Assembly (NCBI GenBank): GCA_964344725.1 | Contig: CAYFOI010000003.1 | Coordinates: 1,520-65,519 of the forward strand | Origin: an uncultured Candidatus Peribacteria bacterium | GTDB taxonomy: Bacteria > Patescibacteriota > Gracilibacteria > UBA1369 > UBA12470 | Direction of reading: 5' to 3' | DNA length: 64,000 nt | Part shown: piece by piece, positions 17,990 to 63,649 of the stretch | Position numbering within the stretch: the first letter of the stretch is position 1 | How the letters are laid out: every line of letters begins with the position of its first letter | Made by a program: the position numbers and the translations under genes | The notes under the pieces: model-generated | The model's database searches: none | Told to the model about the DNA's origin: nothing | What the model saw: only the letters and a program-made list of their open reading frames with translations

Positions 17990-18000
17990 TTGTTTTATTC

Positions 18001-19306: not shown

Positions 19307-19327
19307 TCGCTCTGCTTTGCACAAAAT

Positions 19328-19403: not shown

Positions 19404-19404
19404 G

Positions 19405-19851: not shown

Positions 19852-19902
19852 CTTCCAAAATTACTCCTGATGTGGTAAAATTTCCCGGCTAATCTTTTTT
19901 TG

Positions 19903-20004: not shown

Positions 20005-20043
20005 CAGAAGCGTGCAAATATTTTCGCAATATTCCTAAAATCT
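19932..20043. repeat. Nested-hairpin element, family 1, copy B (25 nt upstream of the uvrB ATG)
   Basis: The outer arms are AGCTTTTATGAAATATTGC and GCAATATTCCTAAAATCT. The conserved internal segments are TCAAATGGTTTCCTTTCTG and CAGAAGCGTGCAAATATTTTC. The inner stem is CTGTTATTTGTA/TACAAATAACAG, and the loop is GCCCAATTACATCGGAT. Confidence 0.75.
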
Positions 20044-20067
20044 TTATGGATTAATAATTGTTAGCTT

Positions 20068-22047
20068 ATGTCTAAATTCAAACTTGTTTCAGATTTTCAA
20101 CCAATGGGAGACCAGCCGACTGCGATTGCACAGCTCGTCAAAGGTCTTGAGGCGAATAAGAGGTTTCAGACGCTTCTTGGTGCGACGGGGACGGGTAAGA
20201 CTTATGTGATGGCGCAGATTGTTGAGCAGCTGCAGCGGCCTACTATTGTTTTGGCGCATAATAAGACGCTGGCGGCGCAGCTTTTTTCGGAGTTTAAGAG
20301 TTTTTTTCCGGATAACGCGATTTCGTATTTTGTATCTTATTATGATTATTATCAGCCGGAAGCTTATATTGCGCATACGGATACCTATATCGAGAAAGAT
20401 GCGCAGATTAATGAGGAGATTGAGAAGTATCGGCATAAGGCAACGATGAATCTTTTGACGAGGCCGGATACGCTTATTGTTTCTTCGGTTTCTTGTATTT
20501 ATGGTCTTGGGAATCCGGGTGATTATGAGGATCTTAAGATTACTTTAAAAGTAGGGGAGACTCGGCAGAGAGACAAGTTGCTTCGTCATTTGACGGATTT
20601 GCAGTATACGAGGTCGAATATTGAGTTTAAGAACGGGATGTTTCATGTGCTTGGGGATGTCGTGGAGATTTTTCCTCCAGGTATGGATAGCGTTTATCGT
20701 ATTGATTTCTTTGGAGATGAAATTGAAGCGATTCAAGAGGTTGAGCACTTCACTGGAGAGCTTATTGAGGAGCTCTCTGAGGTTACGATTTTCCCGGCCA
20801 AGCATGATGTGACTACTGAAGAGAAGATTAAGCATGCTGTTGAATTAATTCGTCCTGATCTTGAAGCTCGTGTAAAGCAGCTTACTGATATTGGGAAGGG
20901 TCTTGAGGCGCAGAGGCTTCGGACGAGAACGGAGTATGATATTGAGATTTTGCTGGAAACTGGTTATTGCACAGGTATTGAAAACTATGTTCGTTATCTT
21001 AATTTGCGTGAGCCGGGTGAGCAGCCTGCTACACTTTTGGACTACTTCCCGGATGATTTTCTTATGATTATTGACGAGTCGCATATGACTGTGCCGCAGA
21101 TTGGCGCGATGCATAATGGGAATCTTTCACGCAAGAAAAATCTTGTTGAGCATGGGTTCCGTTTGCCTTCGGCTTATGACAATCGTCCGCTTAAGTTTGA
21201 GGAGTTTGAGGATCATGTTAAGAGGTGTGTTTTTGTTTCTGCTACTCCTGGGAAATATGAAATGGCACATACTAAAAAAGCGGATATCGCGGAGCAAATT
21301 ATTCGTCCGACAGGGCTGCTTGATCCGCAGGTTGAGGTTCGCTCCTCAGAAGGGCAGATGAAAGATTTGCGTAAGGAGATTGATAAAGTGCTTGAGCGCA
21401 ATGAGAGGGTTTTGGTGACGACTTTGACTAAGAAAATGGCTGAGGCTCTGACGAAATTCTTGGCTGAGCAAGGACTGAGCGTGAGGTATTTGCATTCGGA
21501 TATTGATACGATGGAGCGTATTGAGATTTTGCGTGATTTACGGCTTGGAAGGTTCGATATTTTGGTTGGAATTAACCTTCTGCGCGAGGGGCTTGATCTG
21601 CCAGAGGTGTCCTTGATTGGAATTCTGGATGCGGATAAGCAAGGGTTCTTAAGGTCTGAGAGTGCACTTATTCAAACCATTGGTCGTGCGGCTCGTAATG
21701 TGAATGGGAAGGTGATTATGTATGCTGACAATATGACTCCTGCTATGGAGGCGGCGATAGGAGAGACTGAGCGTCGTCGTGCTAAACAAGAGGCTTATAA
21801 CAAGGAGCATGGTATTACGCCGCAGACGATTATTAAGAAGATTCACGATATGGAAGAGATGAAGAAAGAGGAAGCTAAGAAGCAAGTTAAGCATTACGAT
21901 GGCAAGAAAGTTCCTCGTGAGGAACGCGAGCGTCTCATTGAAGGTATGGAGGCCGAGATGGATATCGCAGCTCAAAATATGGAGTTTGAAAAAGCTGCTG
22001 AGATTCGAGATGAGATTGAGAGGCTGCAATCTGAGTGGAATATGTAG
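20068..22047 (+). CDS. uvrB: Excinuclease ABC subunit B
   Basis: Motifs GDQPTAI, LLGATGTGKT, DESHMTVPQ, GINLLREGLDLPEV and QTIGRAARN, plus the C-terminal UVR motif (FEKAAEIRDEI). Confidence 0.95.
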   Translation: MSKFKLVSDFQPMGDQPTAIAQLVKGLEANKRFQTLLGATGTGKTYVMAQIVEQLQRPTIVLAHNKTLAAQLFSEFKSFFPDNAISYFVSYYDYYQPEAYIAHTDTYIEKDAQINEEIEKYRHKATMNLLTRPDTLIVSSVSCIYGLGNPGDYEDLKITLKVGETRQRDKLLRHLTDLQYTRSNIEFKNGMFHVLGDVVEIFPPGMDSVYRIDFFGDEIEAIQEVEHFTGELIEELSEVTIFPAKHDVTTEEKIKHAVELIRPDLEARVKQLTDIGKGLEAQRLRTRTEYDIEILLETGYCTGIENYVRYLNLREPGEQPATLLDYFPDDFLMIIDESHMTVPQIGAMHNGNLSRKKNLVEHGFRLPSAYDNRPLKFEEFEDHVKRCVFVSATPGKYEMAHTKKADIAEQIIRPTGLLDPQVEVRSSEGQMKDLRKEIDKVLERNERVLVTTLTKKMAEALTKFLAEQGLSVRYLHSDIDTMERIEILRDLRLGRFDILVGINLLREGLDLPEVSLIGILDADKQGFLRSESALIQTIGRAARNVNGKVIMYADNMTPAMEAAIGETERRRAKQEAYNKEHGITPQTIIKKIHDMEEMKKEEAKKQVKHYDGKKVPREERERLIEGMEAEMDIAAQNMEFEKAAEIRDEIERLQSEWNM

Positions 22048-22158
22048 GATTTTTGTTTATCTTGCTCAAATGGTTTCGTTTCTGTTATTACGAACCCAAT
22101 TTCATCGAGCTCGTAATAACAGAAGCCTGCAAATATTTTCGCAAGACAAACAAAAATC
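22048..22158. repeat. Nested-hairpin element, family 1, copy C (starts 1 nt after the uvrB stop)
   Basis: Outer arms GATTTTTGTTTATCTTGC and GCAAGACAAACAAAAATC pair at 17 of 18 positions. The conserved segments are TCAAATGGTTTCGTTTCTG and CAGAAGCCTGCAAATATTTTC. The inner stem is CTGTTATTACGA/TCGTAATAACAG, and the loop is ACCCAATTTCATCGAGC. Confidence 0.75.
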
Positions 22159-22245
22159 TAATGAGGGTGCTGCTGATGCTCTCTCGACAATAACAAAAAT
22201 CTTTTGAGGAGTGGTTTGTTTTGGTGGCATTTGTTGTTGATATAA

Positions 22246-22255
22246 GGGGGGGGGG
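22246..22255 (+). repeat. Homopolymeric G10 tract in the intergenic region upstream of the 22353 gene
   Basis: TATAAGGGGGGGGGGTGTTT; ten consecutive G, about 100 nt upstream of the start codon at 22353. Confidence 0.9.
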
Positions 22256-33274: not shown

Positions 33275-33829
33275 TTAAAATAAGATGTTTGCGACCTTTG
33301 TTTCTAGTTCATCGCGAAGTTGTTTTTCGATTATTGAGTCAAAAGTGAAGTCGTATTCAACTTTACCAGCTTTTAGCACGAATCCTCCTTGGAAGGCCCC
33401 TTCGCTACCTAGAGTGTATTCAGTACCTTTTATTACTTCTTCTGTTTCGGATTTTTTGCCTTTTGCTGGGATTATCTCACCTGTTTTCGAGTGCTTCTCG
33501 GCTTTTTCTAAGGAAGTTTTTAGGTATTTTTTATAATCTGGGGATGAAGTCAGTTCTGCCAAAGTGTCGACGAATACGCTGTTTAGGATTTCACGTTTTT
33601 TTGCTAGGACGCGTTTTCTTTTCTCTGTGTTTGCTAGCATTTCTGCACGAGCTTCGACTCGATCTATTGCTTCGCCTGCTTTTTTCTCGATATTGGTTAC
33701 AGCTTCTTCGCGTTTCTCTTTGTATTCGGCTTTAATGCGTTTTAGTTCTTCTGCGAGTTTTTTCTCGAGTTCTTTGATTTTCTTATCACCTATTTGTTCG
33801 ATTTCTTTGATTAAGTCTTTTAGGGACAT
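33275..33829 (-). CDS. ntpE: V-type ATPase subunit E (peripheral stalk)
   Basis: 184 aa with a long N-terminal charged coiled coil (KELEKKLAEELKRIKAEYKEKREEA) and a globular C-terminus (GGFVLKAGKVEYDFTFDSI). Confidence 0.75.
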   Translation of the reverse strand: MSLKDLIKEIEQIGDKKIKELEKKLAEELKRIKAEYKEKREEAVTNIEKKAGEAIDRVEARAEMLANTEKRKRVLAKKREILNSVFVDTLAELTSSPDYKKYLKTSLEKAEKHSKTGEIIPAKGKKSETEEVIKGTEYTLGSEGAFQGGFVLKAGKVEYDFTFDSIIEKQLRDELETKVANILF

Positions 33830-33919
33830 CTTTTTAGTAGGTTAGTAGGTTAGTAGGTTAGCTTGTTGCTGATTTGTAACCTCGCTCGAGCTTGGCTTAA
33901 GCGAGGATGAAATCAATAA

Positions 33920-39443: not shown

Positions 39444-41531
39444 TTAATTTATGCGGCTGTCCAATGATATTACCTTTTTGGCGGTTTTGGCAATTTTCTT
39501 TGTTTTTAGGCGTGCTTCAGGTAGTGCGTATTCGGTGAAGCTGTTGAATCCGTCAGGTTCTTGGAATGGTGTTGTGCCTGGAGGTGGAAATGGGATTTTA
39601 TAAATTATCAATGTTTCTAGTGGACCAGGTGATAGCATTTGCCAGAATTTGTAGGTTCCGATAATTATTGTTGTGCTGGGTTTGTTTTCGCTTTTTAGTT
39701 TGATCTTGCCTATTCCGCCTGATGATCCTTGGGTTAAGACTGTGATGCCTTGGTCTTTTAATGGCAGGGCTAATTTGCTATGTAATATTGATGCTGTTCT
39801 TTGTGAATTTACGAGTATGAATGCGGGTTTTTCTAGCTCTTCTAAATTGCTTGAGAGGTAGTTGTCGGCGTTTTCTGTGAAAGCAGGGTCTTTTGGAGGT
39901 GGCAAGTCGATGGTTTCTATTTCCAGATTGTTTGATTCTGCTTCTACTGCGAAGTTTTTCGGCAGATTGAGGAGTCTTTTTATATAAAGTCCTTTAGGGG
40001 ATTCTTGAGCGTATGTTATTGATGTCCCGACGAGTGATAGCTTATCTGGCTTGTTCCAGATTTTTTCTGCTAAAAGTTCACCAATGTTTAATGGTGTGAT
40101 TTTTAGCAGCGGTGAGCCATTTTGCATAAGCATTATCTCTATTCGGAGGTTGAGTGAGCCGTTTTTGCTTTTATCCAAGAATTTCAGAAGTTTTTCTTCT
40201 TCGAATTCGGTACCTAAATCTGCTGCAATTTTTCCTGTGAGGTCTGCGATCTTTTGCCATTCGATTGTCGAGTAATGATACTGATTTAATTCAAGTGCAA
40301 ATTTGTCTCCATGTTTTTCGTACATTATTCCGATGTAGCCGAATAGAATGGTTAATTTCTCTTTTGTTTCTTGTGGGAGTTTTGAGTTTGCAAAGCGTTC
40401 TTCGAAGTAGCTTGCTGTGAAAGCTTGTTGTACGCTTCCATAAAACTCCTCGATGTTGTCTATGATTAGGTGTGTTTCTGTTAAATCTATTTGTTCTGAT
40501 TTTGCTAGTCGTCCGAGTGTGTGGTGGGAAAGGATTGTAGGATCGGAGGATTGGAGGATTTTTAGGGTTTCTGGTGGATAATTGGTGTGGCAGTAGTCGA
40601 ACCAAAGATTTTTGATGTTTTGGGGGAGGGTGATTTGAGTAGCTTGTAGCTGGTAGCTTGTAGGTTGTAGGGGGAGGATTTTTAGGGCGAAGACTGTTTC
40701 TTCTGCGGATAGTGAATCTTTTTTGAGTAGTTCTTTGAATAAATCTGAGTTTAGGTATTGGTTTGGATTTAAGATTGTCAGATTCTCTTGTTCTGTGGTT
40801 GCGATGATTATCTTTTGTTCTGGCTTCTCTGGTGTTATTTCTGCGGTTGTGTGTGGAGGGAGTTCTTGGAGGGTGTTAGCTTGTAGGTTGTAGGTTGTAG
40901 CTTGTAGGTTGTAGGTTGTAGCTTGTTGGGTTTGAGTATTTGGTATTTGGTGGTTTCGCAAGGAGTAAAGGAGGATGTCTTTCCAAGGGGACAGGGATTT
41001 TTCTAGGATTCCTCGGGTTTCTTCTGAATTGTTTTTTGAGAAATACATATCAAGAAGGAGGAATATGATTTCTATATTGTCGATTACGTCTTTTAGGGCG
41101 CGATGTTTTCCAGTTTCCTCAATTCCGAGTTTTTCTGCGATTATTTCTAGGCTGTATGATTTTTCTTTTGGGATAGCGATGTGGGCAATGTCCATTGAGT
41201 CGAGTCTTGTGTTGGGCAGATTGAAACCGTTTTCTTCGAGGAAAGTAATGTCGAAGCTGATGTTATGGCCCATGATTGGATAGTCTTTGATGAAATTCTG
41301 GAGCTCATCTTTGATTTCGTCTATTTGAGGTGCATCTTTGACGTCTTCGTTGGTGATTCCTGTTAGGTTTGTTACTAGGTTTGGGATTGTGACGCCTGGA
41401 TTTATAAAAGTTTCAAATTTGTCTTCTACTTGGCGTGTTTCTAGGTTTACCAAGGCTGCTCCGATCTCAATGATCTTGTCGTGTTCAGGGCTCAGGCCTG
41501 TGGTTTCTATGTCGAGGCAGATGATGTACAT
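39444..41531 (-). CDS. DnaQ-type 3'-5' exonuclease fused to a DinG-like C-terminal region (695 aa)
   Basis: The N-terminus has DEDDh exonuclease motifs (LDIETTGLSPEHDKIIEIGA; GHNISFDITFL; HRALKDV). The C-terminus resembles DinG helicase domain 2 (PAFILVNSQR..., IIIGTYKFWQMLS, LIIYKIPFPPPG). I could not find a Walker A motif. Two spacer-like word-repeat segments are embedded in frame. Confidence 0.7.
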   Translation of the reverse strand: MYIICLDIETTGLSPEHDKIIEIGAALVNLETRQVEDKFETFINPGVTIPNLVTNLTGITNEDVKDAPQIDEIKDELQNFIKDYPIMGHNISFDITFLEENGFNLPNTRLDSMDIAHIAIPKEKSYSLEIIAEKLGIEETGKHRALKDVIDNIEIIFLLLDMYFSKNNSEETRGILEKSLSPWKDILLYSLRNHQIPNTQTQQATTYNLQATTYNLQANTLQELPPHTTAEITPEKPEQKIIIATTEQENLTILNPNQYLNSDLFKELLKKDSLSAEETVFALKILPLQPTSYQLQATQITLPQNIKNLWFDYCHTNYPPETLKILQSSDPTILSHHTLGRLAKSEQIDLTETHLIIDNIEEFYGSVQQAFTASYFEERFANSKLPQETKEKLTILFGYIGIMYEKHGDKFALELNQYHYSTIEWQKIADLTGKIAADLGTEFEEEKLLKFLDKSKNGSLNLRIEIMLMQNGSPLLKITPLNIGELLAEKIWNKPDKLSLVGTSITYAQESPKGLYIKRLLNLPKNFAVEAESNNLEIETIDLPPPKDPAFTENADNYLSSNLEELEKPAFILVNSQRTASILHSKLALPLKDQGITVLTQGSSGGIGKIKLKSENKPSTTIIIGTYKFWQMLSPGPLETLIIYKIPFPPPGTTPFQEPDGFNSFTEYALPEARLKTKKIAKTAKKVISLDSRIN
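40877..40927 (-). repeat. In-frame 21-nt tandem repeat (about 2.4 copies) inside the DnaQ/DinG-like CDS
   Basis: The plus-strand unit is GCTTGTAGGTTGTAGGTTGTA. It encodes QATTYNL-QATTYNL-QA on the minus strand, using the same word vocabulary as the intergenic spacers. Confidence 0.85.
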
Positions 41532-44567: not shown

Positions 44568-45500
44568 ATGTTTTCCAAAGGTTCACACTTGCTTTCTTCA
44601 AAAGATCTGACTCGCGAAGATCTTCTGAAGATTTTTGAGGAGGCTGACAAAATGCTTCCTATTGCTCGTAAGGAGCAAAGTTCAGATATTATGAAAGGCA
44701 AAGTTATTGCAGCGCTTTTTTATGAGCCGTCGACTAGGACGAGGTTTAGTTTTGAGACTGCGATGCTTAGGCTCGGGGGGTCTATTATTAGTAATTTCCA
44801 GATGATGCAGACTTCTTCTGCGAAGAAGGGAGAGACGCTGTTTGATACTGGTCGTGTTGTAGGGAAATTTGCGGATGTGATTGCTATTAGGCATCCGGAG
44901 TCTGGGGCTGCAGCTCGACTTGCTGAGGGGGCTGAGGTGCCAGTTATTAATGCTGGAGATGGCCCTAGCGATCATCCGACGCAGGGGCTTTTGGATGTTT
45001 TTACTATTTGGAAGGAATTCGGTGGGATTGAGGGGCTTACGATTGGAATGGTTGGCGATCTTAAGTATGGGCGTGTGCCGCATGCTCAGTGTGAGTTTTT
45101 GAAGAATTTTACAGGTTTGAAATTCGTTTTTGTTGCGCCTGATGCGCTCAAGATGCCTCGTAAGATTGTTGAGGATCTTGAATCTGCTGGGCATGAAGTT
45201 GTTGAAACTGATGATCTCGACTCTGTGATTTGTGAATTGCAAGTTATTGGTCATACGCGAATTCAGCAAGAAAGGTTTGAATCAGAAGAGGAGTATCAGA
45301 AATACAAGGGTGTGTATGTGATTGATGAGGAAACGATGGAGAAGGCTCGGGAAGACATGATCTTGATGCATCCGCTGCCGCGTGTTGATGAGTTGGCTGT
45401 TACGGTTGACGAAGATGATCGTGCGAAGTATTTCGAGCAGGTTACGAATGGTGTTGCGGTGAGGATGGCGTTGATTAAGTCAGTAGTTAGTAGTCAGTAG
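44568..45500 (+). CDS. pyrB: Aspartate carbamoyltransferase catalytic subunit
   Basis: Motifs EPSTRTRFSFE, HPTQGLLD and HPLPRVDEL. Confidence 0.93.
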   Translation: MFSKGSHLLSSKDLTREDLLKIFEEADKMLPIARKEQSSDIMKGKVIAALFYEPSTRTRFSFETAMLRLGGSIISNFQMMQTSSAKKGETLFDTGRVVGKFADVIAIRHPESGAAARLAEGAEVPVINAGDGPSDHPTQGLLDVFTIWKEFGGIEGLTIGMVGDLKYGRVPHAQCEFLKNFTGLKFVFVAPDALKMPRKIVEDLESAGHEVVETDDLDSVICELQVIGHTRIQQERFESEEEYQKYKGVYVIDEETMEKAREDMILMHPLPRVDELAVTVDEDDRAKYFEQVTNGVAVRMALIKSVVSSQ

Positions 45501-45576
45501 GAATAAGCTCGTTGCGGTGTTGATATTTATTTTTTTGTGGTATAATTAAGTGATATTTATTTAAAAACAAATTATT

Positions 45577-46239
45577 ATGGGATTCGGAGAAAATCCAAGG
45601 GCTGCTATGGCAGCGGCGTTGTTAGCACTTACTACATTGGCTGGAAGTTGTGATAAGCCAGCTGCTGATGTAGATGCTAGTGCTGTCCCGACAGCTAGAG
45701 GGGCTGAACTGGTTGAAGATTTGCGTGTTGAGGGACAGGAGTTGGTTGATGAGGCTAATGGGCCTGGTGAGGGCAGGATGTATGGGTTTGGTGGTGTTGC
45801 GGCGCATCAGGTTGGAGAGTTTTATGGAGCTTACGGAGATGCGGCTCAAGAACTGCAAGCAATGGGGGATTATGCTGGGTTGGCTGCGTTAGATACCGAA
45901 GTGCAAGCTGTTTATGCTCAGCTTGTTGATTATCCTGAGGGTCAGGAGAGTATGGTTAATCTTGATTTGGCTATGGCTGCTGGACAGGCTTTTCTTGATG
46001 AATTGGCGGGAATTGAGAAAAAGGATGTGACTTATGGAATTCCTCAACTTACTACTGCTGCTAAGCAGAAGTATATTGAATTTGAAGTTGCGTGTTTGCG
46101 TGCTGGCGAGTCAGTGGATCCTATTCGTGACGATATTTATTCTCGGGTTCCTGAGCACCTTAGAGGCGAGGTTGAATCGGGTAGATCAGCAGCTATGGAC
46201 GAAGCTCGAAAAGTATTGTTTGGGGGAGGAGCTGAATAG
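45577..46239 (+). CDS. Hypothetical secreted protein or possible lipoprotein (220 aa), inserted between pyrB and pyrC
   Basis: N-terminus AAMAAALLALTTLAGSCDKP, which is lipobox-like. The rest is an Ala/Glu-rich helical region. TGGTATAAT at 45538-45546 is an extended -10 candidate upstream. Confidence 0.5.
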   Translation: MGFGENPRAAMAAALLALTTLAGSCDKPAADVDASAVPTARGAELVEDLRVEGQELVDEANGPGEGRMYGFGGVAAHQVGEFYGAYGDAAQELQAMGDYAGLAALDTEVQAVYAQLVDYPEGQESMVNLDLAMAAGQAFLDELAGIEKKDVTYGIPQLTTAAKQKYIEFEVACLRAGESVDPIRDDIYSRVPEHLRGEVESGRSAAMDEARKVLFGGGAE

Positions 46240-46286
46240 ATTAAAAACTTGCTCTTATCTCGTAGTGCTTATATTTTGTAAGTACT

Positions 46287-46316
46287 ATGAAAAAGTTACT
46301 TCTCAGAAATGGTTAG
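46287..46316 (+). pseudogene. Diverged copy of the first 9 codons of pyrC (decoy mini-ORF MKKLLLRNG-stop)
   Basis: ATGAAAAAGTTACTTCTCAGAAATGGT aligns with pyrC ATGACAAAACTACTCCTAAGAAACGGT. There are 6 differences and 5 are synonymous. A TAG follows immediately. The copy is in frame with pyrC, 132 nt upstream. Confidence 0.65.
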
Positions 46317-46383
46317 AAATTCAGTAATCTCTCTTGCTCCCGTGCCTAGTCGGACAAGGTCGCTCGATAGATTCTGAATTTCT
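46315..46383. repeat. Hairpin element, family 2, copy 2
   Basis: The arms AGAAATTCAG(T)AATCT and AGATTCTGAATTTCT form 15 bp with 1 bulge. The 38-nt loop starts CTCTTGCTCCCG and ends AAGGTCGCTCGAT. Confidence 0.7.
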
Positions 46384-46418
46384 TAATTAGTTTTTATAAT
46401 ATAATTCTTCTTACTGTT

Positions 46419-47717
46419 ATGACAAAACTACTCCTAAGAAACGGTACAGTTGTAAGCTCTCAGGGGAAACAGCGGGCTGATGTTCTTTGTGAAAACGGAA
46501 AAATCCTGAAGGTTGAGGAGGATATTACGGTTGTTGATGATATGGAAATTATTGATTGTGAGGGCCAGTTCATTATCCCTGGTGTGATCGATACGCATGT
46601 GCATTTGCGTGAGCCGGGTGGTGAGTATAAGGAAGATTTTATTACTGGGTCGAAAGCTGCGGCTCGAGGTGGAGTTACGACAGTTCTTGATATGCCGAAT
46701 AATAGTCCTGTTACAGATTCGGTTGAGACCCTTGAGGCTAAATATGAGATGGCGAAGGGGCGGATGCTTGTTAACTATGGGTTTTATATTGCGGCGACTG
46801 GTTCGAATATTGAGGAATTAAAAAAAGCTGATCGTGCGTGTGGAGTTAAGCTCTTTATGGGTAAGTCGACTGGAGATATTGTTGTAGAGGATGGTCTTGA
46901 TGAAATTTTTGAATTTTGCAAAGAAAGAACGCTTGTTGTTCATGCTGAGGATGAGGAGCGGATTGAGGCTCGAAAGAAGGAATTTGCAGATGTGGATGAT
47001 CCGTCTGTGCATTCTTTGATTCGCGATGAAGAAGCTGCGTATTTAGCGGTTAAGACGGCACTGCATTTGGCGAAAAAGTATGACACTAAGCTTCATATTG
47101 CTCATTTAAGTACTGCTCGTGAGGTTGAGTCTTTGCGGAAATTCCATGGAGATTACGTGACTGCTGAGGCTGCAACTCATCACCTATTTTTAACTACTGA
47201 TGCTTATTCTGAAAAGGGAACTCTTGTTCAAATGAACCCTCCGCTTCGAGAAGTTGGTGATAAGGATGCTCTTTGGGATGCTCTTCGTGAAGGTGTTATT
47301 GATACGGTTATTACAGATCATGCGCCTCATACTCTTGATGAAAAAGGGAAGCGCTATGGGGAGGCTCCTTCTGGTGTACCAGGGCTTGAGACGCTTTTGC
47401 CTCTGATGCTCGATTGTGTTAACCATGGAGATCTTACTTTTGAGAAAATGGTTGAGGTGCTATGCGAAAAGCCTGCCGAGATTTTTGAGCTAGATCGCAA
47501 GGGGCAGATTGCAGAGGGGTATGATGCGGATTTGACGGTTGTGGATATGAGTCGTGAGGAAGTTGTTGGCGAAAAAGGCTACCATTCAAAGTGTGGTTGG
47601 TCTCCTTATGATGGTTGGAAGCTTATTGGATGGCCAGTTGTGACGGTTGTGAATGGCGAGGTTGTGATGCGAGGTGGGGCGGTAGAGGAGAAATTTGTGG
47701 GGGGGGCGGTTTTTTAA
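46419..47717 (+). CDS. pyrC: Dihydroorotase
   Basis: Motifs GVIDTHVHLREPG, VHAED and TDHAPH; 432 aa. Confidence 0.92.
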   Translation: MTKLLLRNGTVVSSQGKQRADVLCENGKILKVEEDITVVDDMEIIDCEGQFIIPGVIDTHVHLREPGGEYKEDFITGSKAAARGGVTTVLDMPNNSPVTDSVETLEAKYEMAKGRMLVNYGFYIAATGSNIEELKKADRACGVKLFMGKSTGDIVVEDGLDEIFEFCKERTLVVHAEDEERIEARKKEFADVDDPSVHSLIRDEEAAYLAVKTALHLAKKYDTKLHIAHLSTAREVESLRKFHGDYVTAEAATHHLFLTTDAYSEKGTLVQMNPPLREVGDKDALWDALREGVIDTVITDHAPHTLDEKGKRYGEAPSGVPGLETLLPLMLDCVNHGDLTFEKMVEVLCEKPAEIFELDRKGQIAEGYDADLTVVDMSREEVVGEKGYHSKCGWSPYDGWKLIGWPVVTVVNGEVVMRGGAVEEKFVGGAVF

Positions 47718-48490
47718 TTCGTAGCTTCTGGTTCTGGAGTTGTTTCAACCAATATATCCTGTATGGCCTCCATAGCCGCCTGAAATCCTTTTTTCCATAT
47801 GCGTCTTTCTGTATGTGGGAATTTGCCTTGTCGTTTAGTTCTTTTTCTTATTGCATCTCTAGACATTCCTGGGTGCGTTGTACACTTGCTTCTAGCTTTT
47901 TTTCTTCTGCGACGAGTGTGTTTCATTTGCTGATATGCTGCGCCATGTATCCTATGAAGAAGTTCTTCTAGCCCATATATTGTTAGGTCCGCTCTTTTGA
48001 GAGACTCTAATGCTCTTGGGTCATGAAAGTTGTCTCCGGCTCTTTCTACATCTTCTAAAATATTGTCACGTTTTTTTCTTGCCGCGTTTAGTTTTTTTAC
48101 TATGTGCTCAGGATCTCTGGCGCCATCTCTAAATATTGCAATAAGCGCTGCTTGGTATTTTAATGTTTGTCTTTTTGTTTGAGGCAATTTTGTATCGTCT
48201 TGAGTTTCGGCTTGCAATGGCAGCAATGTATCATCGGAAGCTTCAACTGATTGAGGTATATCCAAGCCATCTAGCAATGCTTCTCTTGCCGCTAATCTTG
48301 TTCTTCTGATCTTAGTCCTTTGAGATCGTTTCCACTCACTACTTCTTGCGGTAGCTTCCCTTTGCAATCTATGAGCTCCTGGTTCTTCGAAATGTCTATG
48401 TGATAGCTCTAGTCGGTTAGTCCCTTGAGGAACTCTTCCGGTGTTTATGTTTGGTCTTTCGAAGTGTTCTATTCCTTGATTGTTTTGCAT
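47714..48490 (-). CDS. Hypothetical highly basic protein (258 aa), antisense-oriented inside the pyr cluster
   Basis: This is the only long ORF in the 887-nt gap between pyrC and pyrD. It is Arg/Lys/Glu/Gln-rich (RRRRKKARSK; KRTKRQGK) with no hydrophobic segments. Its stop overlaps the pyrC stop within TTTTAATT. Confidence 0.5.
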   Translation of the reverse strand: MQNNQGIEHFERPNINTGRVPQGTNRLELSHRHFEEPGAHRLQREATARSSEWKRSQRTKIRRTRLAAREALLDGLDIPQSVEASDDTLLPLQAETQDDTKLPQTKRQTLKYQAALIAIFRDGARDPEHIVKKLNAARKKRDNILEDVERAGDNFHDPRALESLKRADLTIYGLEELLHRIHGAAYQQMKHTRRRRKKARSKCTTHPGMSRDAIRKRTKRQGKFPHTERRIWKKGFQAAMEAIQDILVETTPEPEATN

Positions 48491-48551
48491 GTGTGTTCGA
48501 ATTATTAATAGCGGCGGCTTATTGTACCTAATTCCTGTTCTCTGTCAACTT

Positions 48552-48580
48552 TTGACTTGGACCATTTTTTCGATTAAAGT
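48552..48580 (+). promoter_or_regulatory. Candidate promoter for pyrD (TTGACT-17-TAAAGT)
   Basis: TTGACT at 48552-48557, a 17-nt spacer, and TAAAGT at 48575-48580. The -35 box is part of the palindrome GTCAACTTTTGAC. Confidence 0.4.
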
Positions 48581-48604
48581 CCTAGCGTCCTATAACCTCC
48601 ACCC

Positions 48605-49555
48605 ATGAACACATCAATTGATTTTTGCGGCGTTAAATTCCCGAACCCTACTGTATTAGCGTCAGGGATTTTGGGTGTAATAGGTGACTCTCTTAAGAAT
48701 GTGGCCGAGATTGGGGCTGGAGGTGTAACCTCCAAGTCTGTTTGGCTTGAGCGTCATGAGGGGCATCCGAATCCGACGATGATGGGGACGGAGCATTACT
48801 ATATCAATGCTGTTGGATTACCTGACGGAGGCATTGAAAAAGCACGTGAAGAGCTTGGGAAGTATATGAATTGGAAAGGTTCTAAGCGCGAAGAGGAGCA
48901 GGTGCCTTTGATAGCAAACATTGTTGCTGGGAAAATTTCTGATTTTGAGCAGATTGCTGCTGAGATTATAAAAATCGAACCCGATATTGTTGAGGTCAAT
49001 ATTAGTTGTCCTAATGTTGAGAATGAATTTGGTCGGCCTTTTGCGGTTAATCCGGATGATGCTGCTGAAGTTACTCGTACTGTGAAACAAGTTATTCAAG
49101 ATATACCTGTTGCAATTAAGTTGTCTCCGAATGTTGCTGATATAAGGGAAATTGCTGTTGCTTGTGAAATGGCTGGTGCCGATGCGATTACTGCTGTTAA
49201 TACTTTTGGCCCAGGGATGGTCATTGATATTGATACTGCTGAGCCGATTTTGGCTAACAAAGTTGGTGGAGTGAGCGGTCCTGGGATTAAGCCTCTGGCT
49301 GTGAAGCGTGTTTGGGATGTTGCTAGCGCAGTTTCTATACCTGTTATTGGTATGGGGGGTGTGACTACTGGTCGAGATATTATTGAGTTTATGATGGCTG
49401 GTGCGAGTCTTGTTGGGATTGGCGCTGGTGTTTATTATCGAGGAGCTGAGATTTTTGCAGAGGCAATGAAGGAGGTTGAAGAGTGGATGAAAGAAGAGGG
49501 TGTGACTGATTTGTCTGAGATTATTGGAAAATCTGTTAAGAAATATAGTCAGTAG
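48605..49555 (+). CDS. pyrD: Dihydroorotate dehydrogenase, class 1B catalytic subunit
   Basis: Motifs FPNPTVLASG, NAVGLPDGG, NISCPNV (active-site Cys) and GGVSGPGIKP. The pyrK gene follows. Confidence 0.9.
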   Translation: MNTSIDFCGVKFPNPTVLASGILGVIGDSLKNVAEIGAGGVTSKSVWLERHEGHPNPTMMGTEHYYINAVGLPDGGIEKAREELGKYMNWKGSKREEEQVPLIANIVAGKISDFEQIAAEIIKIEPDIVEVNISCPNVENEFGRPFAVNPDDAAEVTRTVKQVIQDIPVAIKLSPNVADIREIAVACEMAGADAITAVNTFGPGMVIDIDTAEPILANKVGGVSGPGIKPLAVKRVWDVASAVSIPVIGMGGVTTGRDIIEFMMAGASLVGIGAGVYYRGAEIFAEAMKEVEEWMKEEGVTDLSEIIGKSVKKYSQ

Positions 49556-49631
49556 GATTTAGTCAGTAGTCAGTAGAGAGTAGAATGGAGCGCTTCGCGC
49601 AGGTTAGTAATTAATAAAAAACTTTAAAAAA

Positions 49632-50432
49632 ATGAAAAACGATATACCAAAAATCTTGAAAATTGCAGAGGTTAGAGATGAAAACCCTACTGTTAAGACG
49701 TTTGTTTTCAAGGGTTATGATCTTGGGGCTAAGCCGGGGCAGTTTGTTAACTTATGGATGCCACGGGTTAATGAGAAGCCTTTTTCAGTATCTTATTGTG
49801 ATGAGAACGAATTTTGGTTAACAATTGCTGCGGTTGGAGATTTTACGAAAAAATTGCATGCTGAGTTCAAGGCAGGGGATAAGGTTGGGATTCGTGGGCC
49901 TTATGGAAATGGCTACACGATCCCTGAGAATAAGAAAATCGCTCTTCTTGCTGGTGGATATGGTGCAGCGCCGCTTTATTTTACTGCTCAGGAAGCTGTA
50001 AAGAAGGGTTGTACTGTAGAGTTCGTCGTTGGAGCGCGGAATAAGGATTTACTTCTGTATTTGGATCGAATTGAGCAGGCTGAGGGTATGAATTTGCATG
50101 TTGCTACCGATGATGGATCGAGCGGTGAGCAAGGTTATAATACGCAGATTCTCGAGAAATTGATTGGTGATGTCGATATGGTTATGACTTGTGGCCCGGA
50201 GGTTATGATGAGAGCTGCTATGAATATTTGCGAAAAAGCTGGTAAGCCTATTGAGGTCTCGATTGAAAGGTATATGAAATGCGGATCTGGTGTATGTGGT
50301 AATTGTTGTGTGGATGGATTAGGGGTCCCGGTTTGCCAGAAAGGGCCTGTTATGTCTGGTGAAATGGCTCGAAAAATAAAAGGTTTGGCAGAATTTCATA
50401 GGGATAATGTTGGATTCAAGATAGTTTATTAG
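49632..50432 (+). CDS. pyrK: Dihydroorotate dehydrogenase electron-transfer subunit (FAD/2Fe-2S)
   Basis: Ferredoxin-reductase-like fold motifs (RPFS-like KPFSVS; GGYGAAPL) and a C-terminal Cys cluster (CGSGVCGNCC...PVC). Confidence 0.85.
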   Translation: MKNDIPKILKIAEVRDENPTVKTFVFKGYDLGAKPGQFVNLWMPRVNEKPFSVSYCDENEFWLTIAAVGDFTKKLHAEFKAGDKVGIRGPYGNGYTIPENKKIALLAGGYGAAPLYFTAQEAVKKGCTVEFVVGARNKDLLLYLDRIEQAEGMNLHVATDDGSSGEQGYNTQILEKLIGDVDMVMTCGPEVMMRAAMNICEKAGKPIEVSIERYMKCGSGVCGNCCVDGLGVPVCQKGPVMSGEMARKIKGLAEFHRDNVGFKIVY

Positions 50433-50442
50433 CGGAAGAGGG

Positions 50443-50471
50443 TTGACAGATTGCCCGGAATGAGTTATGAT
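50443..50471 (+). promoter_or_regulatory. Near-consensus sigma70 promoter (TTGACA-17-TATGAT) for the vWA gene
   Basis: TTGACA at 50443-50448, a 17-nt spacer, and TATGAT at 50466-50471. It lies 28 nt upstream of the ATG at 50500. Confidence 0.6.
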
Positions 50472-50499
50472 TATGGTCTAGGAAGTAATATCTTCAATT

Positions 50500-51240
50500 A
50501 TGAATCAGCAGCGTAAAGGTTTAGTGCCAGAAGGGCTTAGCAGGCTTGCTAGTAGGGCTTCTACTGGTTTAATGCTGGTTGCTTCTATCGTTTTGATTGG
50601 GGCTTGTGGTGGTAATCGTTATCTTGATGCATATGATGATGATGATAACGTGGGCCGTGTTTCTGCCGGTTGTGGTGATCAGGTTAGACGTCTTCATCAT
50701 TCTACGGAAGATGGTGACCGTCTTACTGATGTTGGTCGTACTATTGAAGAAGGTCTTGAGAGATATCCTGCTGATTTTTATTTGATAGATTTGAGTGGTT
50801 CTATGGGACAGGATGTTGAAGTAATCAGAGCTCATGATTTTCCTGAAGGTGCTGAGGTTTGGGCCTTTAATGCAGGAATGCTTTTCAAGCTTTTTGAACC
50901 GTCTATATCGTATTCTTCGGGAGATACTCCATTGTGGCAATGTTTAGATCGTCTTATCGATCATTATTTGCAAGATCCTGATGGCAAGGAGCTTACTGTG
51001 ATGACTGATGGTGTTGATAATGATTTTAATAATGCTAGTGCTACTCAGACTATGGTTGATGGTATAATTAAGGATGCTAAAGGCAAGAATTTGGTTATTA
51101 ATATGGTTGCTGCTGGTGATTATACCTATGCTCCACAGGGAGTTGTTGATACTATGATGAAGATTCCTAATGAGACTGGTGGTGGACATTTTATTAGAGG
51201 TTTTGAGGAGGATGATAAAGATAAAAGGGAGAGTATATAG
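50500..51240 (+). CDS. von Willebrand factor A-like lipoprotein (246 aa), inserted between pyrK and pyrE
   Basis: Signal peptide plus lipobox (LVASIVLIGAC) and a MIDAS-type motif (YLIDLSGSMG). The later TDG motif (LTVMTDGVDN) is typical of vWA domains. Confidence 0.6.
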   Translation: MNQQRKGLVPEGLSRLASRASTGLMLVASIVLIGACGGNRYLDAYDDDDNVGRVSAGCGDQVRRLHHSTEDGDRLTDVGRTIEEGLERYPADFYLIDLSGSMGQDVEVIRAHDFPEGAEVWAFNAGMLFKLFEPSISYSSGDTPLWQCLDRLIDHYLQDPDGKELTVMTDGVDNDFNNASATQTMVDGIIKDAKGKNLVINMVAAGDYTYAPQGVVDTMMKIPNETGGGHFIRGFEEDDKDKRESI

Positions 51241-51303
51241 TTTTCTCTTTTTTTGAAGATGTGGCATAATGCGCAGCGTCTCTATTCGCTTAATCTTCAA
51301 AAA

Positions 51304-51951
51304 ATGGAAAATGTATCAAAGGAAGTTGCTGGTGCTTTGCTTGGTATTGGCGCTGTGAAAGTTAGTATGGATCCGCCGTTTCAGTGGGTTTCTGGAATAA
51401 AATCTCCTGTTTATTGTGATAATCGCATGATGATTTCGCATGTTGCTGAGAGACAAATCGTTGTTGATGCTTTTAAGAAAATGGTTGCAGATCTTGATTA
51501 TGATCCTGATTACATTGGTGGAACTGCTACTGCAGCTATACCTTGGGCTGGATTTTTGGCTCAGGAACTAGGCAAGCCAATGATTTATATTCGTCCTAAA
51601 AAGAAGGAGCATGGTGCTGGTAAGCAGATTGAAGGTGATCTTGAAGCTGGCAAAAAGGTTCTTATAATTGAAGATCTTATTTCTACTGGCGGAAGTAGTG
51701 TTCGTGCTGCGCAGGCTGTTCGTGAAGAAGGCCAGTGTGAAGTGAGCGACATTTTCGCAATTGTTACTTGGGAAATGGGTAAATCTAAAACTGCTTTCGA
51801 AGAGGCTGGTATCAATTTAACAACACTTACTGGTTTTACTGACCTAATTGGCCTTGCTGAGGAGAGATCTGATATTACTTCTGAACAAGCTGGGATGATT
51901 CATAAGTTCAAGGAAGATCCTGCTGGATGGTGGGATGTAGTATCGTCTTAA
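51304..51951 (+). CDS. pyrE: Orotate phosphoribosyltransferase
   Basis: PRPP-binding motif VLIIEDLISTGGS, plus FQWVSGIKSPVYCDNR. I trimmed the track ORF (51253) to the ATG at 51304 (MENVSKEVAG...), which matches the usual OPRTase N-terminus. Confidence 0.88.
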   Translation: MENVSKEVAGALLGIGAVKVSMDPPFQWVSGIKSPVYCDNRMMISHVAERQIVVDAFKKMVADLDYDPDYIGGTATAAIPWAGFLAQELGKPMIYIRPKKKEHGAGKQIEGDLEAGKKVLIIEDLISTGGSSVRAAQAVREEGQCEVSDIFAIVTWEMGKSKTAFEEAGINLTTLTGFTDLIGLAEERSDITSEQAGMIHKFKEDPAGWWDVVSS

Positions 51952-52033
51952 TGATTCTCGCTCCCGAGAAAGGCCTAATCCCGCTTTGCGGGATTGGTGT
52001 TTCTAAGATCGCTCTAATCATTAAGACGATACT
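51939..52033. repeat. Hairpin element, family 2, copy 3 (stem built from the pyrE 3' end)
   Basis: A perfect 18-bp stem: AGTATCGTCTTAATGATT, which includes the pyrE TAA stop, pairs with AATCATTAAGACGATACT. The 59-nt loop starts CTCGCTCCCG and ends AAGATCGCTCT. The loop contains its own hairpin AATCCCGC-TTT-GCGGGATT (51977-51995). Confidence 0.75.
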
Positions 52034-52125
52034 TGATGTTGATTAGAGCTTATGATTTAGGGTGTAGGATTATTGTGCGACTTGATATATACTCCTCCAT
52101 GCCTAATTTACTAACCTACTAATCA

Positions 52126-53082
52126 ATGAACTTCGCTGACAAACTTATCAAAGCTGTCCAAGAGAAAGGGAACCCAATCTGTGTCGGTCTAGATCCTCGT
52201 TTAGGGCAGATCCCTGGTCAAATAATTTCCAAGATTACCAAAGAAAAAGGGCAGACTAAGGAGGCTGCGGCTGAATGTTTTCTTGAGTTTAATAAGGGAA
52301 TTATAGATGCGGTCTGCGATATCGTACCTGCCTGCAAGCCTCAGATTGCCTTTTATGAGCAGTATGGATTCGCGGGATATTGGGCTTATGAGGAGACTTG
52401 TAAATATGCTCAGGAAAAAGGTTTGATTGTAATTGCTGATGCCAAGCGTAATGATATTGGCTCAACTGCACAGGGGTATGCTGGTGCTTTTCTTGGTGAA
52501 GTTGATCTTTTTGGAGCGAAAGAGTCTGGTTTGGGGGCAGATTCCTTGACCGTGAACGCATATCTTGGTTGGGATGGTATTAAGCCTTTTGTTGAGGCTT
52601 GTAGAGAGCATGGTCGAGGTATTTTCGCTCTTGTTAAGACTTCAAATCCGTCTTCTGGAGAGCTTCAGGATCAAGATTTGGTTGGAGATGGTGTTTCTGA
52701 CGACTTTGCAGAAGGGGATAGAATGAAAGTTTATGAACTTATGGCTCACTATATTGATTCTTGGGGGGCTGATGTTGTTGGAGAGAGTGGATACTCGAGT
52801 GTGGGTGCTGTAGTTGGGGCTACTTATCCTGAGCAGGCGAAAGTTCTTAGGAAAATGATGCCGAAATCTATATTTTTGGTCCCTGGTTATGGTGCTCAAG
52901 GTGGAGGGGCTGCTGATGTTAAGCCTTGTTTTAATGAAGATGGCCTGGGTGCTGTTGTTAATTCGAGTCGGGGGATTATCTTTGCTTATGAAAAAATGGA
53001 TAAGTTCGATGCCGAAAGTTATGCTGATGCAGCGAGGGCTGCATGTGAGACGATGAAGGAAGATTTGGCATCTATTTTTTAG
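52126..53082 (+). CDS. pyrF: Orotidine-5'-phosphate decarboxylase (long, type 2)
   Basis: Motifs ICVGLDP, DAKRNDIGSTA and VPGYGAQGG; 318 aa. Confidence 0.88.
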   Translation: MNFADKLIKAVQEKGNPICVGLDPRLGQIPGQIISKITKEKGQTKEAAAECFLEFNKGIIDAVCDIVPACKPQIAFYEQYGFAGYWAYEETCKYAQEKGLIVIADAKRNDIGSTAQGYAGAFLGEVDLFGAKESGLGADSLTVNAYLGWDGIKPFVEACREHGRGIFALVKTSNPSSGELQDQDLVGDGVSDDFAEGDRMKVYELMAHYIDSWGADVVGESGYSSVGAVVGATYPEQAKVLRKMMPKSIFLVPGYGAQGGGAADVKPCFNEDGLGAVVNSSRGIIFAYEKMDKFDAESYADAARAACETMKEDLASIF

Positions 53083-61683: not shown

Positions 61684-62310
61684 TTATTTAGAGTAGAACT
61701 CAACGATAAGCTGAGTATCTATGTTTGATTCTGCATCATCCTTTTCTGGCATAGCGATTACTTCGCCTTTCAGATTGCCAAGGTCCACGTTTAGCCACTT
61801 TGGGCTTTTGAATTTCTTGTTCTTTTTTGCTGCTTCGAATAGAGGGCTTCCTTTTTTTCCTTCCTTTACTTCAAATGAGTCTCCAACTTTTACTGTGATT
61901 GATGGTACGTCTACTGTTCGTCCGTTTAATTTAATAAGACCATGGCTTACTATCTGTCTTGCCTGGTCTCTAGATTCAGCGAGACCTGCTCTGTAGATAA
62001 CATTGTCTAATCTTGTTTCCAGTAGTTTTAATAGAGCTGTACCTGTGACTTCCGATTGTTTGTCAGCTTTTTTGTAATATTCAGCAAATTGACTTTCGCT
62101 TATTCCGTAAATTCGTCTAGCTTTCTGTTTTGCTCTTAAATGTCTTCCGTACTCGGTCTGTTTGCCAAACCGATTTTTCCCTAGTTGTCCTGGAGCGTAA
62201 TTTCTTCTAGTAATTGCACATTTTTGCCCTTCGCAACGTGATCCTTTCAGGAAGAGTTTTTCTCCTTCGCGTCTACATAATTTGCATTTTGATCCTGTGT
62301 ATCGAGCCAT
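61684..62310 (-). CDS. rpsD: 30S ribosomal protein S4
   Basis: MARYTGSKCKLCRREGEKLFLKG and RLDNVIYRAGLAESRDQARQIVSHG. Confidence 0.93.
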   Translation of the reverse strand: MARYTGSKCKLCRREGEKLFLKGSRCEGQKCAITRRNYAPGQLGKNRFGKQTEYGRHLRAKQKARRIYGISESQFAEYYKKADKQSEVTGTALLKLLETRLDNVIYRAGLAESRDQARQIVSHGLIKLNGRTVDVPSITVKVGDSFEVKEGKKGSPLFEAAKKNKKFKSPKWLNVDLGNLKGEVIAMPEKDDAESNIDTQLIVEFYSK

Positions 62311-62342
62311 GGTTAGTAGTTTAGTAGGTTAGTAAGTTAGAT

Positions 62343-62717
62343 CTAGACCTTTCGTGGTCTAGGTCTGCGGCATCCGTTATGCGGGATAGGTGTTTTATCG
62401 TAAATAGATTCAATGTCTAAACCATTAGCGATTAGAGCTCTTATTGCTTGTTCTCTTCCGGTGCCGACTCCCTTCACGAATACATCTACTTTTTCTAGTC
62501 CGTATACCTTAGCTTTCTCAACAGCCCCCTCTGTTGCTACTTGCGCTGCATATGGAGTTGATTTTTTAGTTCCTTTAAAACCGCTTGCTCCTGCGCTGTG
62601 CCATGCTATTACATCTCCTGATTCGTCTGTTATTGTGACGATGGTGTTGTTGTAACTTGCGTTAATATAAACTTTACCTTTTTGGATGCTGCGTCTTTTT
62701 TTGCTTGTTGTTGCCAT
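62343..62717 (-). CDS. rpsK: 30S ribosomal protein S11
   Basis: [37 protein letters not shown] and [16 protein letters not shown]. Confidence 0.93.
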
Positions 62718-62757
62718 TTTTAGTAGCTTAGTAGGTTAGTAAGTTAGTAGGTTAGCG

Positions 62758-63543: not shown

Positions 63544-63649
63544 CGGTAAATGGTAATTAAACCTGTAAAAAGGCTTGTTGATATAAAAAGCTCTTGGAGT
63601 TTACAGGAAGGATACCCCTATTGCAAGCCTTTTTAGACGGATTCCTAAA

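Follow-up and report, generated by a model that had tools for sequence, protein, structure and literature searches.

The stretch of DNA analysed here, referred to as the window, is 64,000 nucleotides long and is assigned by its PyrC relatives, the best of which are 78-82% identical, to Candidatus Peregrinibacteria of the Candidate Phyla Radiation (CPR). It contains a pyr operon in the order carA (minus strand), pyrB, pyrC, pyrD, pyrK, pyrE and pyrF, and this work concerns a nine-codon decoy of the pyrC start, which lies upstream of the start in use and is separated from it by a long hairpin and an AT-rich tail (Table 1). Decoys of the same layout also stand before rpiB and uvrB; therefore, the arrangement is not peculiar to pyrC. 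We believe, with a probability of about 0.62, that the pyrC decoy is the resident ancestral start of the gene, a relic that was stranded when a hairpin element inserted with duplication of its target.

The decoy and the start in use differ at six of 27 bases (positions 5, 9, 10, 15, 18 and 24); five of these differences are synonymous and the other exchanges lysine and threonine in codon 2. This count, first made in a sequence-only reading of the window, was confirmed by direct reading, as was the placement of the decoy ATG, three TAGs (46314, 46347 and 46368) and the pyrC ATG in a single frame, the two ATGs being 132 nt apart. Folding bore out a hairpin between the two copies with the TAG of the decoy at its foot (-25 kcal/mol, z = -4.3); its outer stem consists of GAAATTCAG.AATCT and AGATTCTGAATTTC, and its conserved core motifs are CTCTTGCTCCCG and GGTCGCTCG. 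The TATAAT box that had been reported between the hairpin and pyrC is indeed present, at 46395-46400 and not at 46396-46401 as first given. A promoter scan reported no full -35/-10 site on the plus strand of the pyrC tail, which is nearer to the rpiB tail than any of 38 other upstream regions. Upstream of the decoy, 11 nt 5' of its ATG, lies a TATATT box that we presume to be the ancestral pyrC promoter. Two relatives (L059 and L002) have TATATT or TATAAT 8-9 nt upstream of their own pyrC ATG; as such, the non-coding similarity was not significant.

Table 1. Coordinates of the decoys, elements, starts and neighbouring features in the window (DR, direct repeat; ORF, open reading frame; ORFan, ORF without homologues).
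Feature	Coordinates	Strand	Remarks
TATATT, -10-like box	46270-46275	+	read in sequence
pyrC decoy mini-ORF	46287-46316	+	ATG AAA AAG TTA CTT CTC AGA AAT GGT TAG; MKKLLLRNG then stop
pyrC DR1	46287-46313	+	
Hairpin element, family 2, pyrC copy	46315-46383	.	long imperfect hairpin
AT-rich tail, pyrC	46384-46418	+	with TATAAT and short leader of the start in use
pyrC DR2	46419-46445	+	first nine live codons, ATG ACA AAA CTA CTC CTA AGA AAC GGT (MTKLLLRNG)
pyrC	46419-47717	+	dihydroorotase, 432 aa; Pfam PF01979 (Amidohydro_1), PF07969
rpiB decoy, DR1	17864-17897	+	ATG CAC GTT TAT ATT GGT TCA GAT CAC GGT GGT T; ancestral MHVYIGSDHGG
Hairpin element, family 2, rpiB copy	17900-17968	.	fold z = -3.1
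AT-rich tail, rpiB	17969-18000		
rpiB DR2	18001-18034	+	live start, ATG AGA GTC ...
rpiB	18001-18438		PF02502
uvrB decoy	19903-19933	+	ATG AAG GAC CAG AAA TTC AAA CTT GTA TCA G; ancestral MKDQKFKLVS
Family-1 inverted-repeat element in uvrB	19933-20047	.	115 nt
Tail, uvrB	20048-20067		
New uvrB start and DR2	20068-20092	+	ATG TCT, then DR2 (AAATTCAAACTTGTTTCAG, 20074-20092)
uvrB	20068-22047		Pfam
Hairpin at pyrE 3' end	51939-52033	.	95 nt; perfect 18-bp outer stem
220-aa ORFan	45577-46239	+	lipoprotein gene of the sequence-only reading, between pyrB and the old pyrC start; no Pfam match
Periodic repeat arrays	17786-17847, 33819-33869, 40862-40944, 45463-45515, 49546-49584, 62306-62340, 62713-62755		

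The decoy arrangement is not an assembly artefact, because two other contigs carry it. One (L061, sample ERZ930068) corresponds to window positions 45312-47463 with a single mismatch, at 46827, within pyrC and outside the decoy-hairpin module; the other (L062, sample ERZ930070) corresponds to 45338-46445, likewise with one mismatch, at 45900, within the 220-aa ORFan. Over three independent contigs (~10.6 kb of contig and ~9.5 kb of window) we counted four single-base differences, at 17198, 21125, 45900 and 46827, and none falls in a decoy or a hairpin. One of these contigs (L062) ends at 46445, the very base that closes the second repeat. We considered a population variant as the reason and rejected it, as the end does not fit a bubble at k = 127, and we treat it as a coincidence. 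The contig of a relative (L052) starts within the rpiB hairpin, and assemblies appear to break at such modules, possibly reflecting population variants or a loss of coverage related to the hairpins.

Sequence comparison shows the decoy to be homologous to pyrC starts, and for this homology chance is excluded. Its peptide is identical to the PyrC N-termini of two relatives (L002 and L063), its homology to the orthologues stops exactly at the foot of the hairpin, after GGT, and, codon 2 aside, it differs from any functional pyrC start by synonymous changes throughout; codon 2 itself varies among the orthologues (N, E, K, T or S). The decoy, which shares 21 of 27 positions with the resident start, is a true homologue of the pyrC 5' end and has a coding-like look, as the sequence-only reading had proposed. 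In relatives of 71-82% identity (L001/L059, L060, L002 and L063), pyrC has neither the hairpin nor a second start. A second start is also missing in L003-L005 and L064, where the presence of a hairpin was not checked. The decoy differs from the starts of L002, L063, L059 and L060 at 4-6 positions and from the resident start at six, and the live start is identical to that of L002 at 25 of 27 positions, although the L002 protein is only 78% identical. No decoys of other pyr genes were found in searches of up to 1.5 kb upstream.

The same layout recurs elsewhere in the window. Each ORF of at least 90 aa was searched for a match to its first 27 nt within the 400 nt that precede it, and only rpiB (23/27), pyrC (21/27) and uvrB (19/27) stood out from a background maximum of 18/27. 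A comparison scan of the 24 nt after codon 2 over ~400 kb of other loci, seven Peregrinibacteria lineages included, found no comparable case; the maximum was 17/24, save one 19/24 in an unrelated locus (L047). All three loci in the window are built alike: the old start is followed by a hairpin or an inverted-repeat element, then by an AT-rich tail, a new ATG and the repeated codons, so that the N-terminus is regenerated by the duplication. The element begins 0-2 nt from the repeat end in every case, at 27 nt (pyrC), 34 nt (rpiB) and 31 nt (uvrB) after the old ATG, the tail between element and new ATG measures 20-36 nt, and the repeat copies are 132-159 nt apart. Each of the three decoys has retained its ATG and an open frame over the duplicated part, and the decoy ORFs end 102 nt (pyrC), 11 nt (rpiB) and 63 nt (uvrB) before the live ATG. 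Another assembly of the same organism (L051) confirms the rpiB and uvrB loci; all three loci are thereby borne out in assemblies of the window's own sample and of a sister sample.

At rpiB and uvrB, comparison with relatives shows which copy is the older: the upstream copies are the ancestral starts in their ancestral flank, and the downstream starts are derived. Nearly all rpiB relatives start MHVYIGSDHGG. Two plain prs-rpiB junctions (L053 and L056) have the start ATG CAC GTT TA., in L056 also with TGAC before the ATG, and this start and flank are those of the upstream copy in the window. The start ATG AGA GT. occurs only in the live rpiB of the window and in its closest relative (P0002/L052, 81%), whose contig begins within the right arm of the rpiB hairpin and continues into a diverged tail. 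That arm is ~80% identical between the window and L052, where 4-fold sites are ~45% identical, and since the element is common to both, the rpiB relic should be as old as their split. The rpiB decoy ORF spans 17864-17989, and the two repeats, 137 nt apart and out of frame, are identical over their last 25 nt. At uvrB, the L052 site is empty, with no element, and its start, ATG AAG GAC CAA AAA TTC AAA CTT GTT TCG behind GCTAATCTTTTT, matches the decoy of the window together with its flank; the window's own uvrB start, ATG TCT, is new. The first uvrB repeat occupies 19915-19933, is identical to the second at 18 of 19 positions, and belongs to a decoy ORF that reaches 20004.

Two families of elements are involved. 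The rpiB and pyrC hairpins, which we term family 2, have the inner motifs ATCTCTC.GCT and GTCGCTCG in common, and global alignment of hairpin plus tail gave z = 4.3; by this measure the two elements, tails included, are homologous. Their outer stems are paired within each copy and differ in sequence between copies, and an inner core, CTC.GCT / GTCGCTCG, is retained. The element in uvrB is one of three copies of a second family, family 1, at 19406-19520 (after tRNA-Arg), 19933-20047 and 22048-22162 (after the uvrB stop). These 115-nt copies have 68-72% identity to the reference over their full length, the closest pair (19933-20047 and 22048-22162) reaching 84% over 83 nt, and each has terminal inverted repeats with arms of 21-25 nt, 76-88% complementary, and a central hairpin. 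A BLAST search found no more element copies in 60 related loci, the family-2 copies being too diverged even for blastn-short, and a motif-plus-fold scan for family 2 gave only a possible fragment at ~19530-19600. Under the gathering and E-value thresholds of Rfam, tRNA-Arg alone passes and the hairpins match no known RNA family; sub-threshold matches on the family-1 element are to generic long-hairpin microRNA models. The tails of rpiB, pyrC and uvrB and the upstream region of gene 22353 resemble one another more than they resemble other leaders, and AT-rich upstream modules of the form AAATAATTGTT...ATG precede all four, each beside repeat elements. This hints that the tails travel with the elements, and the modest similarity could also reflect a general leader consensus.

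The 3' end of pyrE has a hairpin that is only weakly related to family 2 (z < 2) and is a doubtful third copy. The pyrE stop TAA (51949-51951) lies within its left arm, and directly after it stands TGATGTTGATTAG (52034-52046), a relic of the old pyrE end, with ~5-8 nt repeated. The protein ends in DVVSS in the window and in GVVN in a relative (L060, where the gene ends GGT GTT GTG AAT TAG). By its sequence the pyrE hairpin appears to be a mirror image, at the 3' end, of the decoy arrangement, with insertion into the last codons.

Given that the hairpin and decoy are missing in relatives of pyrC, that the layout recurs, and that the upstream copies at rpiB and uvrB are ancestral, we favour the reading in which the pyrC decoy is a relic of the old start, and we propose the following model. 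The decoy would be the original 5' end of pyrC, consisting of the promoter-proximal region, the ATG and the first eight codons. In an ancestor of the window's Peregrinibacteria lineage, a short non-autonomous hairpin repeat would have inserted right after codon 9, and the insertion would have brought with it a direct duplication of the first codons, of 19-34 nt over the three gene starts, that is, a long and variable target duplication as in IS1634 and IS1549. The AT-rich tail that follows the element, with its TATAAT and ATG, may act as a working promoter. As a result, expression of pyrC would now begin at the downstream copy, with the upstream one surviving as a short ORF ended by the TAG in the hairpin foot. 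The insertions seen today would be the survivors, those whose duplication rebuilt a start. The mostly synonymous differences, small in number, would result from purifying selection on the live copy together with C-to-T-biased decay of the relic, and past gene conversion between the pyrC copies may contribute, as at rpiB.

Several observations weigh against this model. No pyrC relative closer than 82% was found, and the age of the pyrC insertion is therefore not datable; for pyrC specifically, an origin by recombination keeps a small share of the probability. The duplications vary in length: the tRNA-Arg copy has none and the pyrE copy ~5-8 nt, against 19 nt for uvrB, 21-27 nt for pyrC and 25-34 nt for rpiB, and a fixed staggered cut is excluded because the lengths differ between copies. 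None of the 40 window ORFs scanned encodes a transposase, an integrase or another mobilising enzyme. The origin of the tail, the new ATG and codon 2 is not accounted for by the model, and the upstream non-coding parts of the two copies show no significant similarity against shuffles. A duplication reaching further upstream, over the promoter, was suggested by Smith-Waterman alignment but not borne out, the flank comparison being without significance against shuffles. The state of the rpiB relic is a further objection. Between the window and L052, ~55% of 4-fold sites differ, and the neutral change is ~0.3-0.4 per site per lineage, and yet the relic is unchanged at all 23 of its first- and second-position sites (P ~1e-5 if neutral); its six differences from L056 all (6/6) fall at third positions. 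The sequence TGAC ATG CAC GTT is also unchanged and cannot be converted from the live copy (P ~0.002). On these figures neutral decay alone does not account for the rpiB relic. The repeated part, where the identical 25-nt repeats include the window-specific derived synonymous states CAC and GGT, is explained if the selected copy converted the relic, but TGAC ATG CAC GTT is not, and some constraint on the old rpiB start is plausible, for example if its promoter and start were still active. Because the rpiB relic outlasts the expectation for neutral decay, gene conversion or constraint may act on the decoys.

The preponderance of synonymous differences at pyrC was noticed post hoc, is significant at no more than a nominal level, and has a weight that depends on the null that is chosen. 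The probability of at least five synonymous changes among six is 0.003 with all six unconstrained under a uniform null, 0.014 under a null with kappa 4, 0.024 under a C>T-heavy null and 0.057 when positions are permuted and change types kept; if no more than three changes fell on the unconstrained copy, the probability of 3/3 synonymous is 0.02-0.056. At three of the six sites the decoy has T where the live start has C; this stretch offers six possible C>T changes, four of them synonymous, and the plus strand is C-depleted, with a GC skew of ~+0.3 in genes. The excess is less surprising because selection filters changes on the live copy and because a C>T bias strikes codons with mostly synonymous C sites. 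Polarising the pyrC differences by outgroups was ambiguous, 4-fold sites being ~55% different between lineages. Once the first two or three codons are passed, rpiB and uvrB each show a single synonymous difference, and at all three loci there are non-synonymous differences in codon 2 or in the first few codons. The sequence-only reading had argued that a decaying duplicate should lose the peptide. The coding-like look of the decoy held up, but the premise is weakened by the half of the divergence that lies on the live copy and by the C>T bias; the five-of-six count alone is suggestive, neither decisive nor a proof of selection. The coding strands of the plus-strand genes measured (44568-53082 and 18001-22047) have a GC skew of +0.28 to +0.48, with T exceeding A, and so extreme an asymmetry of the strands implies either purine loading or a mutation spectrum with a strong bias. 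Adenine mutagenesis by a diversity-generating retroelement was considered and rejected, since the changes (C>A, A>G, three C>T and A>C) are not confined to adenines and no reverse transcriptase was found in the window.

The conservation of the decoys could also mean, as the sequence-only reading had suggested for pyrC, that they are translated leader ORFs under selection, the old start loading ribosomes and modulating termination, mRNA stability or re-initiation as part of a domesticated cassette. We regard this as a minor but real possibility, with its main, if indirect, support in the rpiB relic. It would accommodate that relic, conserved far beyond neutral though the element predates the L052 split, and the rpiB hairpin arm, which has changed so much less than 4-fold sites; the end of the rpiB decoy ORF close before the live ATG has a spacing that suits termination and re-initiation, all three decoys have kept their ATG and open frame, and the pyrC synonymous excess (P = 0.003-0.06) points the same way. 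However, the ends of the decoy ORFs are scattered relative to the live ATGs, the peptides are the N-termini of three unrelated enzymes, which makes a peptide function implausible, the identity of the 25-nt rpiB repeats is expected from gene conversion, pyrC relatives do without the whole module, and the hairpins match no known cis-regulatory RNA family. The sequence-only reading had alternatively taken the decoy for part of a foreign allele, left when the lipoprotein gene upstream was acquired. In a version with two lineages, DNA from a related Peregrinibacterium, comprising hairpin, tail and pyrC 5' end, would have been joined by homology on the gene side and illegitimately on the other, with the resident start left as the decoy. 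Such an origin is unlikely, even if the decoy and live start do differ in the manner of orthologues: third positions are identical at 4/8 and first and second positions at 14/16, compared with identities of 0.49-0.54 and 0.88 between the pyrC of the window and those of L059 and L060. The closeness of the live start to that of L002, in excess of what the proteins would suggest, and the repeated gain of genes at the pyrB-pyrC junction of relatives (L063 and L064) also favour it. Yet the junction lies 0-2 nt from the left end of the element at 3/3 loci, which is not predicted by a random illegitimate join, both rpiB copies carry window-specific derived states and hence belong to one lineage, and no donor lineage with a hairpin upstream of pyrC was found. 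Around an ancestor resembling L002 the distances add up (two to the real start, four to the decoy and six between them), which in-situ duplication fits equally, and the comparison of the decoy with other lineages (4-6 differences, against six to the resident) gives no clear signal that it is closer to any of them. As for the lipoprotein gene, it has no homologue anywhere and is not tied to a donor, the same decoy layout occurs at rpiB and uvrB, where the decoy adjoins flanking sequence that relatives share, with no gene in between, and the decoys there are demonstrably resident ancestral starts; the foreign-allele claim as first worded is therefore not supported.

Two further explanations can be given little credence. 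The GGT-TAG-hairpin of pyrC mimics the take-off site of T4 gene 60 (PMC5462505; bioRxiv 10.1101/2022.08.31.505936). In both, a coding region holds a mobile insert, a Gly codon stands before a UAG at the base of a hairpin, and a matching codon lies downstream; at pyrC the UAG opens the stem of the stable hairpin and the downstream Gly codon is in frame. The decoy would be the true N-terminus if ribosomes took off at GGT 46311-46313 and landed at GGT 46443-46445. We consider such bypassing very improbable: the gap is 132 nt as opposed to about 50, take-off at codon 9 would be too early in the gene for a nascent-peptide signal in the exit tunnel, and the gap holds its own TATAAT, as an independent promoter, and an ATG where the orthologues start, a start that is conserved as coding in L052. 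Nor do the features of gene 60 extend to the other loci, since at rpiB the repeat is followed by TGC and not by a stop, with the copies out of frame (137 nt), and uvrB lacks them as well; over the three loci the gaps measure 132-159 nt, and each holds an ATG, behind an AT-rich leader, at the orthologues' start position or at one conserved with L052. Chance, either in the resemblance of the decoy or in its synonymous pattern, is scarcely credible as a product of AT-rich sequence. The synonymous excess taken alone, with P ~0.02-0.06 under realistic nulls and noticed afterwards, would allow it, but a match of 21/27 exceeds all background comparisons, and the decoy begins with ATG, encodes an orthologue N-terminus and is one of three parallel cases.

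The elements resemble the repetitive palindromic elements of bacteria that are likened to MITEs (miniature inverted-repeat transposable elements), such as the Correia elements of Neisseria and the Rickettsia palindromic elements. Like these they measure little (70-115 nt), do not code for protein and fold into hairpins; several copies occur, at gene boundaries, and they can carry promoter-like sequence. Both family 1, with three 115-nt copies, and family 2, at rpiB and pyrC, consist of related copies; the terminal repeats of family 1 have arms of 21-25 nt, whereas the outer stems of family 2 differ between copies. A fixed short target duplication, as is usual for MITEs, is not seen here, the lengths being 0-34 nt. 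Known palindromic and MITE-like elements have target duplications of 0-9 bp or are tolerated in frame within proteins. In contrast, the loci described here have a duplicate of 19-34 nt from the 5' coding sequence and are read from a new start codon. Leader-peptide and upstream-ORF attenuators, for example the E. coli pyrBI leader and the erm and cat leaders, similarly place a short ORF and then a hairpin ahead of a biosynthetic gene, but the pyrC ORF copies the start of the gene itself, the same structure occurs at unrelated genes, and it is missing from the pyrC orthologue loci examined. We found no alternative pairing of the pyrC hairpin with the start region. A pyrimidine-specific attenuator was rejected, as the module is missing in pyrC orthologues and present at the unrelated rpiB and uvrB.

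For duplications of variable length there is a precedent in IS1549 and IS1634, which have direct repeats of 8-514 bp, variable in length and without a mechanistic model (PMC2266710). Here too the length differs between insertions, from ~0 to 34 nt. However, those insertion sequences are autonomous, measure 1.5-2 kb and encode a DDE transposase, while no transposase domain was found in the window ORFs scanned and no sequence relationship to them has been shown. Putative mobile promoters and promoter reuse have been proposed in prokaryotes (PMC3575422). The similar AT-rich modules before unrelated genes, next to repeat elements, recall this proposal, with the difference that here the module lies inside what used to be coding sequence and is linked to a duplicate of the gene start.

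If the decoys are indeed stranded starts, three of ~57 genes in 64 kb were cut at the 5' end and rebuilt from a duplicate, and gene callers and comparative studies will meet spurious short ORFs and altered N-termini, such as MRV in place of MHV for RpiB and MSKF in place of MKDQKF for UvrB. This would show one way in which an insertion into essential coding sequence can be tolerated, and how the operons of streamlined CPR genomes can acquire new internal promoters. The splitting and rebuilding of gene 5' ends around small repeats, with relics that are unusually well kept, would be a new form of MITE-like insertion, and no equivalent of the decoy-element-restart arrangement is described in the literature searched. 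A bolder proposal, which we find rather doubtful, is that decoy, hairpin, tail and start make up a single mobile cassette by which operons are split and promoters rewired. It would insert ~30 nt into a gene, insulate it from transcription upstream, supply a promoter, leader and ATG of its own and rebuild the N-terminus out of the duplicated target, the old start being selected as a translated leader ORF. If true, tiny non-coding elements would have a hitherto undescribed means of restructuring transcription units in the reduced genomes of candidate phyla, with the genes that are hit left intact.

The pyr operon of the window contains three ORFans without homologues or domains (45577-46239, 47714-48490 on the minus strand, and 50500-51240), and all three are missing from the collinear locus of a relative (L060). 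The first of these, the 220-aa ORFan, had no homologue among 5.8 billion proteins, is missing between pyrB and pyrC in L001/L059 as well as in L060, and has a GC skew like that of its neighbours; it is context, outside the decoy mechanism. At the same junction, relatives have gained a 113-aa ORF (L063, 926-1267) and a MazE/ParE-like pair with a 79-aa ORF (L064, 552-1412), and by gene content the pyrB-pyrC junction looks like a recurrent insertion hotspot. Further hairpins with arms of at least 12 nt lie at 51249-51304, behind the third ORFan and with its end 2 nt short of the ATG of pyrE, and at 63566-63635, near the end of the window.

Elsewhere in the window, a 204-nt insert relative to L052 (19404-19607) stands directly after the CCA end of tRNA-Arg(GCG), with no flanking duplication; it consists of a family-1 element and a fragment with TCTCGC...GCGAGA and AGCTCGCTCT motifs. 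The spacer between the family-1 copy after uvrB and gene 22353 contains a run of nine G at ~22245-22253, a candidate slippage tract judging from its sequence. Arrays of TAG-containing repeats with a period of 7-8 nt, for example TTAGTAGGTTAGTAGG and TAGTCAGTAG, follow gene ends (Table 1), and analogous periodic repeats lie between prs and rpiB in a relative (L056).

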